Part shown: positions 3,382 to 46,675 of the stretch, in pieces | Layout: the number at the start of each line of letters is the position of its first letter | Numbering within the stretch: position 1 is the first letter of the stretch | Source of the DNA: Escherichia phage vB_EcoM_DE16 | Reading direction: 5' to 3' (one strand) | DNA: 64,000 bases | Sequence record: OP595145.1 | Notes under the pieces: model-generated | What the model saw: only the letters and a program-made list of their open reading frames with translations | What the model was told of the DNA's origin: nothing | The model's database searches: none | Position numbers and translations under genes: made by a program

Positions 3382-6300
3382 ATGGCAACATTCCCAACAT
3401 ATCCAGCAACGTCTCTCGAACAGGGCGTAGACCTGGTTATTTTCTCATCTAACCAACTCCATGATGTTATTAATGGAAGTGCTACAGAGAGTATTGAAAC
3501 AGAATCAGGGTTGATACCAACCCTGAGAAAAGCCCTTGTTGACAACTTTTTCTTTAAAAGCCCATTGGATTGGGCGCAAGGCACAAACGAAACAGTTTTT
3601 AACCAACTTCGTTATTTCCAGAATGGAGTATTGAGCGGTTATTACTATGCCCCTAACGCTACATTGGTTAACCCAATCCCTATGCAAGGGACTCCAGTAG
3701 GAGATAACAACTGGGTATTGTGGGGACTGAAAACAGAACAATTAGCAACAGAAGTCACCCCGTGGGTATACTCTGGTGCAACGGGTTATGAAACAGTAAT
3801 TAGTCCTCCTTACATCTTTGATAGTGCTATTGTTACGATCAATGGTGTTATTCAGGTTCTGGGGGAAGCTTTCCGTATAGAAGATAGTAAGATCATCTTA
3901 TCTGAACCTTTGGGACACGATCCTGCAACAGGACTACCAAACAAGCTTTTTGCTTATATTGGTAAAATCGTAGCTTCAGCAGATACAGATCCTAATCTAG
4001 AGAACCGTCTTGTTAGTTTAGAAACAAAAACGGAAGAACTAACAGAAAGCATGGATAAAGTCCCTCTGCAAACTATTGCTCGTAAATATGGTTTGTTAGA
4101 TGATGAGGTGGCTTACGCAACAGCAGGTCAATCGTTAACAGGGATTAAAGCTCTGTATGATCCAGTAGCACAGTCTTCCTACACATTACCTCCTAACATC
4201 ACAGGAACTTTAACATCCTTGTCTGTTTCTGGAGTAATGACTTATTCTGGGGGGTCTGTAGATCTTTCTGCACTAGCTGTTGAACGTGGACAGTTTGTTC
4301 ATTTGCCTACAAGCTTTGGTAATAACGTAACTCTGACAGCTAAAAATCAGACGATTGGACGTGGTGCTGGTCGTTATCGTTGGGCTGGAAGTTTACCAAA
4401 AAGTATTTTGGCTTCTGATACATTGGAGACAAGCGGTGGATTAGGTCCAAATGCATGGGTTCTGACCAATACAGAAGGACTGTTAACCCCTCGTGGTGGA
4501 ACATACAACGATTTATTCGATGTTGTCTACTTGTCAGAATTTGCTAACAACACAACAACATATACCACACCAGAAGCAGCTTTCCAAGCGGCACTGTTAG
4601 CAGCAAAAGCTTCGAAAAGCAAGATTCTCGATGCTTACGGTTGCGATATGACTTTCACGACAAGCTCTTTTGATATTCAAGGTATCACTTTGCGTGGGGG
4701 TGTGTTCCGTGGTCAACGCGACTATCGTGTGCAAAATGCTACAGTAGAAGGCACAACTTTCCGTAACTCTCGTGTTATGTATTGGGGTGGTGCTGTGCGC
4801 ATGTTCGATTGTTTGTGGGACGGTGCTCCTCGCGCAGGTCAAGTTGGTAGCTTGGTATTCCAAGGCAACCCAATATCAGGTACTTTTGAAATTGATAATT
4901 GTACTTTTAAAAACGGGTTATACGGCATCCTTCAACAAGGAACAGGGGAACCAGTAACACGTGGTGTCTTCCGTAACCTTACCTTCATGGACATGCAAGG
5001 TGATGCAATAGAACTGAACGTCATCAATAAACATTATGACGATGGTTGTGTGATTGAGAATATTTACCTGTCTAATATCGATGGAACTAATGCTCCTATT
5101 CCTCTGTCCAACTGGGGTATCGGTATTGGTGTAGCTGGTAAAGGACCATATGGTTACGGAATCCCTGATGATCAATATTGTAAGAATATTACAATTCGTA
5201 ACGTTTTTGCAAAACGTTGCCGTCAGATTGTCCACGTAGAAGTTGGTCGTAATATCTCTATCGAAAACATTCATGGCGATCCAGACCAGACTGTATCTGT
5301 TGGGACAGGTTTGGCAACTGGCGCAGTTGTAATGTATGGAAGTAAAGATTTTACGATTGATGGTGTTTATGGAGAGCCTAAAACAGACGGTAGCACACTT
5401 GCAAGTAATATCCGTATGATTTATTTGGAGTGGGGAACTAACGCAGTTCTGGACGAAGAGGGTAATCCGGTAGTTCCGGCACAGGGCAGACCTTCAAATC
5501 CATGCTTTAACTATTCTGTTCGTAACATTCACACCAAAACTGGGCGTGTTTTTGCGGGAGTTTCCGCTGGGCCAGGTTATGAAAACAGAGTTAGCTTTGA
5601 AAATATTCGTTGCGCTGCATTGCAGTTGTTCGGTATAGCTTCTTGGCTTTCAATGTCTAACATCACCTGTAATATCTTCGATTGTGTTGGTCAACCTGAA
5701 TCTGGTCCAGGGACATTTTATGATGGATTCTTCCGTAGAGAAAAATCTGTTCTTGAAATGGTTAACGTAAACTGTTACCCAGATGGCAAGACGATGGTTA
5801 CTGGTCGTCCACAGTGGAGCCGTTGCCGTTACTCGGATATTCATCGTGTCAACTGTAATGTTGAAGCTAATATGTATACCAATATCGCAGGTGGTATTGG
5901 AGCTATTGTAGGGACAACGGGCAAAGTTTATTACTTAGAGCCTAATCCTAGTCGAAACATTGATGGAATGCATTTCCCAACAGGGAAAGAGTTTGACAAA
6001 GGGGATATGATAGTCAAGGCGGATAATACGTTCTTCCTTGTAACAACAAGTGGGGCATATATTCCAGATATCCCAGCTTTCGGTATTCGAGCTACACAGG
6101 CAGGAGATACCTTCCTGACACAGAACTTGACTCCTAACGGGACAGCAACAAATGCTTCTTGGTTGTATCATTACCCTCTGTCAGCAGGGACACGTATCCG
6201 TATTCCTGGTGCTGGTGTAGGTGGAGCAGATTTGGACACAGTTATTACTCGTGCACCTTATCAAGATAATGATACGTGGACTAACCCAGTTAAAATAGAC

Positions 6301-44733: not shown

Positions 44734-44910
44734 AACACACTCTCCTATTATTGTTCTTGATCTTACGATCATCTACCGATAAGAACAAGTACTTAAATCT
44801 CTGTTCTTCGAACATCTAACGATAGAGATTAATCTATTACATAATCTATACTCGCTATCGCTCGACCCTTCGGGGTTAGGGTAGCATATTTTTTTGAAAA
44901 AAGTCAACAT

Positions 44911-45228
44911 TTATTTTTTGGTAAGTAGATAAATCAATTGTTCACCTGCTTCTGGTGCATATAGTGATTTAGTATCGGAGTCAAAGAAGTGAGTGACCCC
45001 TGTTACTTTGGATACCTGAATAGATAATCGTGCAAGCTTAAGCAGATTATCCATTTCCGCAATCTTTGCACGAAATACTGCACGTGTAGCGTCAAAAGCT
45101 GCATGTGGCATGTATTTACGATTTAGACTACTACGTTTAAATTTACGATAATCTGCAATGATCCTGTTACGTTCTTTGTTCAAGTACTCTACCAGTGCAG
45201 TATATACGTGTGGTTCTTTGTTAGCCAT
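44911..45228 (-). CDS. hypothetical protein
   Basis: Track ORF trimmed to ATG (MANKEPHVY...) after AGGAGA. Confidence 0.35.
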   Translation of the reverse strand: MANKEPHVYTALVEYLNKERNRIIADYRKFKRSSLNRKYMPHAAFDATRAVFRAKIAEMDNLLKLARLSIQVSKVTGVTHFFDSDTKSLYAPEAGEQLIYLLTKK

Positions 45229-45433: not shown

Positions 45434-45690
45434 TTTACTTCCCCTTTGTAATCGGACACTATACCAGGTCTTACTTTTGCCTTAAGATGTTTCAACTCTG
45501 CCATAGGAGTTGCCACTTGTATAAGGTTAATAATTTCAACCTCGTAGATAGTATACTCATAACCCGCATACTTCCCGATGGAATGCAGGTATTTGATAGC
45601 ATGTTCAGGTGAATCTGCTTCAACATACCCCAAATCTTTTGTAGTGCGGCCTTCACAGTCGCCTTCTGTAGTTACGTGATAAAGTGTCAT
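45430..45690 (-). CDS. hypothetical protein
   Basis: Track ORF trimmed to ATG (MTLYHVT...) after GAGGAGG. Confidence 0.35.
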   Translation of the reverse strand: MTLYHVTTEGDCEGRTTKDLGYVEADSPEHAIKYLHSIGKYAGYEYTIYEVEIINLIQVATPMAELKHLKAKVRPGIVSDYKGEVK

Positions 45691-45836
45691 AAAACCTCCT
45701 CGTAGTAAGGCAAAGCTTTGATTAACTGTTCTGAAGTGCCATTCTCTGTCCATGTAACCCCGTTGTCAAGAGAAACAAACCCTTTCTTATCGATAAATTT
45801 ACGGAGACAACCAGTGAACTTGTTTTTGTAGATCAT
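45687..45836 (-). CDS. hypothetical small protein (49 aa), not in supplied ORF track
   Basis: ATGA coupling at both ends; AAGGAAAG RBS; alternative to the 5' extension of track ORF 45430..45753. Confidence 0.3.
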   Translation of the reverse strand: MIYKNKFTGCLRKFIDKKGFVSLDNGVTWTENGTSEQLIKALPYYEEVL

Positions 45837-46267
45837 TTCTTCTTTCCTTTCTTTAATTTGTTGTGACCTTTACCCTTATAAAGCTTGTGATTACGAGCAG
45901 ACGGGTTATTTTGGTTCTCCAGTCGGCTAACAGGTGTATTCCAAAGGTTTCCTGCTACAAAAGATGCTGCCACAAGTTCTTCCAGGTATACAAAATCCAA
46001 AGCAGGTATCTTTGTTTCCCTCATCTCGCGTTCTACATTAGACAACACGCCTTCTTCCTTACTGTCTTCTTTTTCAATTACAGACCAACCCTCTTCCTGC
46101 CAAGCTTCCCCTCTGAACCAAGTTTCCATGTTATAACCTTGTTCGTCGAGAATAACACCATCTCGCATCTCAAACCATTCGCCACCACAAAAATGGCGGT
46201 GCTCAACACGTCTACCTTCCTTCATTGCTTCTTTAGCTTCGGGCCAAGTCAGTTTGATGTTTTGCAT
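45833..46267 (-). CDS. hypothetical protein with N-terminal region resembling DUF2829 (Tad2-like) proteins
   Basis: 144 aa; first gene of the leftward operon; N-terminal LTWPEAKEAMKEGRRV...GEWFEM; Lys-rich C-terminus; assignment tentative. Confidence 0.35.
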   Translation of the reverse strand: MQNIKLTWPEAKEAMKEGRRVEHRHFCGGEWFEMRDGVILDEQGYNMETWFRGEAWQEEGWSVIEKEDSKEEGVLSNVEREMRETKIPALDFVYLEELVAASFVAGNLWNTPVSRLENQNNPSARNHKLYKGKGHNKLKKGKKK

Positions 46268-46328
46268 TTGTTTTCTCCTTTTGTTTGGTAGGAGTTGATC
46301 TTAACAAGATTAAAAAGTATGTCAATAC

Positions 46329-46356
46329 TTGATCTGAAATTATTTTCAGGTATCAT
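46329..46356 (+). promoter_or_regulatory. candidate sigma70-like promoter for the rightward early operon
   Basis: TTGATC, 16-nt spacer, TATCAT; about 25 nt upstream of the first plus-strand early gene. Confidence 0.35.
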
Positions 46357-46381: not shown

Positions 46382-46675
46382 ATGATGAACATTACTTTAG
46401 CAACTAAGAATATTTCTGAAACAATTAACGGTTTTGGTGTGATTGTAGCCTTGCACGGTAACAATGAGAAATGGTTGGCTTCTTTTGAAGAGGATCGTCA
46501 ACACAACATTATTTTAGATGCCCCTATAAAAGTTATGCATATCGTTGGTGAAAGCAAAGTGCTCACTTCCTCCCGTTCAAAAGAACAAATTACAAATGAA
46601 TTAGTAAAACTGCTTGACAATGTTCTTAACATGTTTGATAATGCACCCATCGATACAAAACGTGTCTTAATGTGA
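46382..46675 (+). CDS. hypothetical early protein
   Basis: 97 aa; AGAGAGG RBS. Confidence 0.4.
   Translation: MMNITLATKNISETINGFGVIVALHGNNEKWLASFEEDRQHNIILDAPIKVMHIVGESKVLTSSRSKEQITNELVKLLDNVLNMFDNAPIDTKRVLM

Follow-up and report, generated by a model that had tools for sequence, protein, structure and literature searches.

The leftward operon of Escherichia phage vB_EcoM_DE16 (OP595145.1) opens with a gene whose product is named "hypothetical protein" in every annotated relative. An initial annotation of the 64,000-nucleotide stretch analysed here (the window) had likened the N-terminus of this product to DUF2829 proteins and proposed that it counters host immunity immediately after infection. 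Tad2 is among the few families of phage proteins known to act as sponges for bacterial immune signals, and its members deal with Thoeris I, II and IV, CBASS and Pycsar. Does the gene that heads the operon belong to this family, and if so, does it encode a sponge? The features on which the answer depends are collected in the table.

Table. Features of the gene, its product and the divergent junction in the window (positions are those of the whole stretch)
Feature	Position	Strand	Basis
CDS, 144 aa plus stop, ATG start; phrog_22208 member	45833..46267	-	ORF list
ATGA shared by the stop of this gene and the start of the following one (45687..45836, 49 aa, phrog_2381)	45833..45836	-	sequence read
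Mini Tad2-like domain, residues 4-66, net charge -6	46070..46258	-	predicted elements
Linker, acidic and variable, residues 67-90	45998..46069	-	alignments; pLDDT
Orphan C-terminal module, residues 91-120	45908..45997	-	alignment of diverged relatives
Polybasic C-terminal tail, residues 121-144 (NPSARNHKLYKGKGHNKLKKGKKK), net charge +10	45836..45907	-	alignments
5' leader with Shine-Dalgarno sequence AAGGAG at 46275-46280	46268..46297	-	sequence read
Sigma70-like promoter of the leftward operon: TTGACA, 16 nt, TAAGAT, with an upstream TG (extended -10)	46298..46325	-	consensus scan
Promoter-like site of the rightward operon, back to back: TTGATC, 16 nt, TATCAT	46329..46356	+	consensus scan

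The phage is a Phapecoctavirus (phAPEC8-like, Stephanstirmvirinae) with Escherichia as the host, and the ~2 kb around the gene are 98-99% identical to those of ECML-183-2, 536P1, AV125 and many more. The reading frame is present, and the string that the initial annotation had quoted from it, LTWPEAKEAMKEGRRVEHRHFCGGEWFEMRDGVILDEQGY, is found letter for letter as residues 6-45 of the translation. Since its stop codon and the start codon of the following gene overlap, the operon headed by this gene is tightly packed, and the ATGA overlap suggests translational coupling within it. The leftward block consists of small genes whose functions are unassigned (phrog_12401, 7252, 14778, 25113, 24836 and 27862). 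Looking for a functional clue among the neighbours, both in the window and around the relatives, we found only genes of unassigned function, and guilt by association is therefore unavailable. Nor was a second copy of the N-terminal domain or of the tail motif found elsewhere in the window. In ASO2A, a rho-independent terminator is annotated past gene five of the operon; its counterpart in the window, a hairpin at 44830-44915 (minus strand), has no U-tract and scored z = 0 against shuffled sequences, and we do not claim a terminator there.

The gene was said to lie just after a divergent promoter region, and this is indeed so: it is the first gene past a divergent intergenic region of 114 bp, the rightward operon starting at 46382, and a sigma70-like promoter precedes it, with 31 nt between the end of the -10 element and the ATG. 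The annotation of ASO2A places a promoter at the same site, directly followed by the counterpart of the gene (ASO2A_246, "hypothetical protein"). The promoter is also kept in a distant ortholog (P0033 on contig L012), which also heads one arm of a divergent junction; the opposite arm of that junction is an AAA ATPase, as in phAPEC8-like phages. There, TTGACA-16-TG-TAAGAT stands 30 nt before the ATG and aligns with the promoter of the window, and in the alignment the leader TACCAAACAA-AGGAGA is common to both. Promoter and leader are thus conserved as a pair (46268-46325, minus strand, in the window; 3620-3676, plus strand, in L012), whereas the coding sequences have strongly diverged. The region of the rightward promoter-like site is partly conserved with L012, where the site on the opposite strand reads TTGACA-16-TATTAT. 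The conservation of promoter and leader in L012 supports a functional promoter for the host polymerase and, hence, early expression. With a near-consensus promoter and a strong ribosome-binding site, the gene would be transcribed early by the host sigma70 RNA polymerase. It is its position and its promoter, and these only, that would suggest an immediate-early anti-defence role.

Next to be answered is whether the resemblance to Tad2 is real. The 144-aa protein itself had no match in Pfam, DUF2829 included, even at E ≤ 10, and the single sequence had no match in NCBIfam and, in the PDB, merely a meaningless one to CutA (E = 0.3). A word-indexed homolog search with the full protein returned close relatives only, and with the N-domain alone two fragments. 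In PHROGs, phrog_22208 covers the whole protein (E = 2.8e-100) and phrog_3474 covers residues 4-65 (E = 4.8e-30). A relationship to Tad2 did emerge from profiles. When the profile of the N-domain family was aligned by hhalign with a PF11195 alignment, made of SPO1 Tad2 (gp34.65) from the SPO1 genome and collected PF11195-annotated homologs, the score was 36.7 (Prob 93%, P = 2.6e-7), compared with 20.4 for the best of 40 column shuffles and 13.8 for the reversed alignment. Three of four stand-alone homologs scored 17-19 bits on PF11195, below its cut-off of 25 bits, and sub-threshold matches at E ≤ 0.01 were obtained for 17 of the 145 family members (E = 5.8e-4 to 0.01); beside PF11195, only SEC-C recurred in the Pfam scan of the members. 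Among genuine PF11195 proteins, 41 of 113 scored above 10 bits on the HMM of the mini family, and in the converse search with a Tad2 HMM shuffled mini-family sequences reached at most 6.4 bits; the cross-scores in both directions exceeded this shuffled control. Searched against PDB sequences, the family profile had SptTad2 as its first match; this match, with an E value of 0.77, is not significant alone, and it extends over the N-terminal helix as well as the C-terminal W...W-x-V.

The structural comparison gave the same answer. The predicted elements of the domain are a helix (8-16), three strands (20-23, 32-35 and 38-41), a second helix (55-58) and a last strand (61-64), and in the predicted fold alpha1 is packed on a small antiparallel sheet with a short helix, as in Tad2. 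With the full-length model as the query, the best PDB matches were SPO1 Tad2: its chains took the top seven places in Foldseek (E = 0.27-1.5, probability 0.57-0.97, target-normalised TM 0.47-0.60). In BFVD, the protein's own family came first, followed by a 63-aa DUF2829 protein (E = 2.5e-4, 33% identity); 60-63-aa proteins annotated as DUF2829 and many "Thoeris anti-defense 2-like domain" proteins were also among the matches. These data confirm that residues ~4-66 are a remote homolog of Tad2/DUF2829 that shares its fold. The likeness noted by eye is thereby confirmed as remote homology and as a common fold, but the gathering score of PF11195 (25 bits) is not reached, and the interpretation attached to it is partly supported.

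The domain belongs to a large family. In an exhaustive HMMER search over 1.84 billion cluster representatives, 215 representatives were found at E ≤ 1e-3, nearly all of them matching profile positions ~5-66 only, and by tblastn the N-terminal ~62 residues were matched in 479 phage records. The commonest form is a stand-alone protein of 60-66 aa in virulent phages of enterobacteria and Aeromonas. It is carried by T4-like phages (Citrobacter Merlin; Klebsiella jumbo-T4-likes), T5-like (Epseptimavirus) and Felix-O1-like phages and, further, by Chaseviridae, Autographiviridae and Vequintavirus-like phages. The family consensus is M-T-x-x-E-A-x-x-A-M-x-x-G-K-K-V-x-H-x-Y-F-x-x-x-E-[YWF]-x-x-M-x-x-G-x-I-x-D-E-x-G-Y-...-[FW]-[WF]-...-W-x-x-G-W-x-I, in which A11, G18, H23 (90%), F26 (96%), E30 (99%), E42 (94%), G44 and W61 are near-invariant. 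The members are acidic, with a mean net charge of -4.2 (-6 in the window domain), compared with -1.3 in Tad2. One member of 175 aa (P0047) has the mini domain twice in tandem, which may be a covalent pseudo-dimer and would be in keeping with two or more domains making up the functional unit. A eukaryote-like protein of 2489 aa (P0041) was rejected as a false positive: its E value of 2.4e-11 arose by summing over 15 repeats of ~55 aa (REGDRVEARYKGGSKYYKGKISRVNADGSYNIDYDDGD). In the Escherichia phages alia and muut, which are related large myophages, the N-domain is 58-61% identical and the match ends at window residue 69; the alia protein has 183 aa in total (BFVD A0A6B9XAY3). The N-domain appears to be shuffled as a module in these phages.

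If the domain were a canonical Tad2, one would expect the residues that contact gcADPR to be conserved. Two motifs, R-x-G-W-N-G-K-x-M-F and W-x-[PA]-S-x-[ST]-D-x-L-A-x-D-W, are common to every Tad2 protein characterised (SPO1, Mod, Hgm and Spt), and GWNGK and S-x-T-D are invariant also across the 113-sequence PF11195 set. The contacts to gcADPR are made by W25/N26 and S76/T78/D79 in SPO1 Tad2 and by W21/N22 and S90/T92/D93 in HgmTad2. According to Li et al., this site is conserved in ~99% of Tad2 proteins, which makes its loss in the window protein significant. Indeed, the column map shows both pocket motifs to be absent from the window protein and from its family. W25-N26-G-K28 of SPO1 Tad2 is replaced by [YFH]-F-[TSC]-[DS]: W25 corresponds to H25 in the window protein (Y, F or H in the family), N26 to F26 and K28 to D or S. 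S76-x-T78-D79 is lost, its S, T and D aligning with variable positions. Elsewhere, R22 corresponds to H23, M30 to E30 and A66 to E42; W73 and W85 alone are retained, their equivalents being W50 and W61. The spacing of the latter two is 11 in the window protein and 12, as in Tad2, in many family members. The correspondences in the C-terminal half of the domain are to be read with the low posterior probability (0.1-0.25) of its alignment to Tad2.

The second difference concerns the insertion between beta2 and beta3. In Tad2, a homotetramer whose ligand pockets lie between protomers, this insertion (residues 36-59 in SPO1, 32-72 in HgmTad2) forms the V-shaped dimer and, when long, also the pocket for cyclic dinucleotides. 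The window protein does not have residues 36-59 of SPO1 Tad2, that is, the insertion with alpha2 and the dimer interface: in the model, beta2 and beta3 are joined by a two-residue turn, and hhalign opened a gap of ~25 residues at the same position. The gcADPR pocket of Tad2 lies at the protomer interface and is built from the loops beta1-beta2 and beta3-beta4, strand beta4, the loop beta4-alpha3 and alpha3 (bioRxiv 10.1101/2023.05.01.538930). By the model and the column map, the beta1-beta2 loop holds H23, F26 and E30, the loop that follows beta3 holds E42 and G44, and the conserved aromatics W50 and W56 are near the short helix, in the segment equivalent to beta4/alpha3. From these positions it follows that the conserved residues of the family occupy the pocket elements of Tad2. 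Since fold and profile homology are present, but the Pfam threshold is not reached and the ligand motif and the insertion are missing, we assign the domain to a separate, minimal branch within the Tad2 superfamily and do not class it as a canonical Tad2.

More than half of the protein lies outside the part that had been compared with DUF2829: residues 67-144, a 78-aa extension, hold a conserved module and a basic tail. The linker is modelled with a pLDDT of ~50-54 for residues 71-90 and <50 for residues 69-76, and the module with a pLDDT of 53-72. The module has a conserved amphipathic helix motif, D-F-x-x-L-E (D91, L95, E96), and, in close relatives only, a TPVSR motif; it matched nothing in Pfam or among PDB sequences. 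A conserved tail, KGKGHNKLKKGKKK, terminates the module. Its core, K-G-x-G-H-N-x-L-x-K-x-K-K, is almost invariant even where the N-domain is only ~40% identical: four such diverged relatives (P0024, P0025, P0033 and P0040) keep both the helix motif and the tail core, and the stretch between the two varies freely, with total lengths from 109 to 221 aa. The C-terminal part is spanned by only five representatives among the matches listed, and the back-translated tail motif was found in one contig only in IMG/VR. Four other members (P0098, at 4001-4420 of locus L009, P0103, P0106 and P0130) end in a SEC-C zinc knuckle, C-x-C-G-S-G-x-K-[FY]-K-x-C-C, and in several others plain Lys/Arg tails take this place; the domain is thus repeatedly joined to a C-terminal basic element, which differs in form. 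The SEC-C (PF02810) knuckle itself, C-x-C-x-S-G-x-K-[FY]-K-x-C-C, was looked for in the tail of the window protein, which has no cysteine and no Pfam match.

What could such a protein do? The reading that we tentatively prefer, and to which we give slightly less than an even chance, is that of an early-expressed, oligomeric, ligand-binding (sponge-like) module whose ligand is other than gcADPR and which is tethered by its polybasic tail. The protein would be a two-part accessory protein, composed of the minimal Tad2-fold domain and the C-terminal module. Since its conserved residues lie in the elements that build the inter-protomer pocket of Tad2, the domain would most likely still be an oligomeric binder of a small ligand and serve as a sponge-like counter-defence or host-modulating protein. 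The chemistry of the pocket would be altered, with GWNGK replaced by [YFH]-F-[TSC]-x-D, M30 changed to E30 and S-x-T-D lost, and because of this alteration the ligand is probably not gcADPR bound in the manner of Tad2. By means of the conserved helix motif and the lysine-rich tail (+10), the domain would probably be tethered or brought to a polyanionic surface such as nucleic acid, the ribosome or an anionic membrane. An anti-defence sponge role of the product is plausible, and that of a canonical gcADPR sponge is unlikely. Several observations argue against the preferred reading: the pocket loops are acidic and the domain carries a charge of -6, whereas the pockets of known sponges are described as positively charged; the dimer-forming alpha2 insertion is absent; the gcADPR contacts of SPO1 Tad2 and HgmTad2 are lost; the relatives score below the Pfam gathering threshold; the C-terminal half of the domain aligns to Tad2 with low posterior probability; and the neighbouring genes offer no functional hint.

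An alternative is a host-takeover factor that is not a sponge, in which the acidic N-domain would be a module for protein binding or mimicry and the basic tail would bind nucleic acid, the ribosome or the membrane. The opposite charges of domain (-6; family mean -4.2) and tail (+10), the two glutamates among the invariant residues of the family, the very diverse extensions fused to the domain, SEC-C included, and the location of the genes in blocks of small early genes without assigned function are all in line with such a factor. However, the conserved residues are in the loops that form the ligand pocket of Tad2, most members are stand-alone proteins of 60 aa, like known sponges, and the data presented here point to no partner; we regard this alternative as serious but rather unlikely. 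Taken as a canonical Tad2 sponge, in line with the initial annotation, the protein would sequester the signal of type I Thoeris (1''-3' gcADPR) in the pocket known from SPO1 Tad2; this reading is improbable. The same fold, the remote homology, the retained equivalents of W73/W85 (W50/W61), an early promoter that suits a sponge and the great functional plasticity of the Tad2 family speak for it, but GWNGK and S-x-T-D are missing, with N26 turned into F26, K28 into D or S and D79 into a variable position, so that a site conserved in nearly all Tad2 proteins (Li et al.) is lost, as is the insertion needed for the V-shaped dimer.

The near-invariant polar residues H23, E30 and E42 in the pocket loops also allow for a small oligomeric enzyme, in which an immune signal, instead of being sequestered, would be broken down or modified by the invariant His and two Glu where protomers meet. 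There are precedents in phages: Acb5, for example, is a small enzyme that cleaves a signal and has symmetric active sites between its protomers. The case for an enzyme is made from residue identity alone, however; no similarity to hydrolases was found in Pfam, NCBIfam or fold searches, and we know of no enzyme with the Tad2 fold. We consider an enzyme highly improbable. That the likeness to DUF2829 is due to chance, the protein being a small alpha+beta protein unrelated to that family, would agree with the lack of a Pfam match for the protein itself, with the E value of 0.77 against PDB sequences and with the Foldseek E values of 0.27-1.5; set beside the profile-profile score, which no shuffled or reversed control approached, it is hardly credible. 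A more far-reaching reading, speculative and quite unlikely, would be that the family is an overlooked, widespread, insertion-less Tad2 branch in virulent phages of enterobacteria (T4-like, T5-like, Felix-O1-like and rV5/phAPEC8-like phages, Chaseviridae and Autographiviridae), whose re-engineered, acidic H/E/E/aromatic pocket captures or cleaves a signal or metabolite outside the range of the known sponges. In phAPEC8-like phages, it would be a "tethered sponge", with the polybasic tail concentrating the domain at the membrane, the ribosome or nucleic acid.

By the present analysis, phage proteins of ~60 aa that form a large family are recognised as a minimal, sequence-divergent branch of the Tad2 fold with different pocket residues, and annotation by Pfam thresholds misses the window protein and the relatives studied here. 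If members bind a ligand, the range of signals neutralised by phages would be wider, perhaps pointing to a new signal; if they bind none, the Tad2 fold would have been recruited for another task in early infection. The family takes in relatives from model systems (T5-like and T4-like phages and isolates of the BASEL collection) and is experimentally accessible in E. coli. A small puzzle of its own is posed by the lysine-rich tail and its conservation.

SPO1 Tad2 (gp34.65; PF11195; PDB 8SME, 8SMF, 8SMG and 8WJE) is one of the known proteins that come closest to the window protein. The helix pattern x-EA-x-x-A-[ML]-K-x-G-K-K-V is common to both proteins, as are the antiparallel sheet, the short helix and the end W-x-[IV]-[IV], and SPO1 Tad2, too, is a small protein of a virulent myophage; in contrast to it, the window protein adds the 78-aa C-terminal extension with the basic tail. 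HgmTad2/AcrIIA7 (PDB 8KBI) uses a 40-residue insertion, wholly missing in the window protein, to bind cyclic dinucleotides, and both HgmTad2 and ModTad2 (PDB 9EIB) keep GWNGK and S-x-[ST]-D, neither of which is found in the window protein. Similar in length and with the same insertion-less topology are short DUF2829/Tad2-like proteins of 60-73 aa, such as those of virus sp. ctML55 (A0A8S5RI74; 33% identity, Foldseek E = 2.5e-4) and Klebsiella phage KpS110 (A0A2K9VAK2) and Tad2_80, but none of these has the C-terminal module. Of the two sequence clusters, phrog_3474 is the stand-alone N-domain and phrog_22208 the whole protein, both without a function or fold assigned. Tad2_80, which scored 2.2 bits on the mini-family HMM, was negative on four systems where testable (bioRxiv 10.1101/2025.08.24.671296). 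The 18 Tad2 homologs put to experimental test in that study include no member of the mini family; the best of them reached 12.5 bits on the mini-family HMM, compared with 92 for the window domain, and the motifs of the mini family are absent from the supplements of two Sorek-lab preprints.

The ligands described for Tad2 proteins, 3'cADPR, His-ADPR, N7-cADPR, cyclic dinucleotides and cCMP/cUMP, attest to the plasticity of the family. Other counter-defence proteins that were considered have different folds and are not the mini family: Sequestin (helical, PF21825), Lockin, TadIV-1 (T4 vs.3, helical) and the enzyme Acb5. Atd1 of Phapecoctavirus, a MazG-like enzyme, is likewise unrelated to it. 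Atd1 has been described as a (p)ppGpp pyrophosphatase that blunts TIR-based defence (PMC11724313; bioRxiv 10.1101/2022.06.09.495361), and the group of phages to which vB_EcoM_DE16 belongs is therefore already known to possess one counter to TIR systems.
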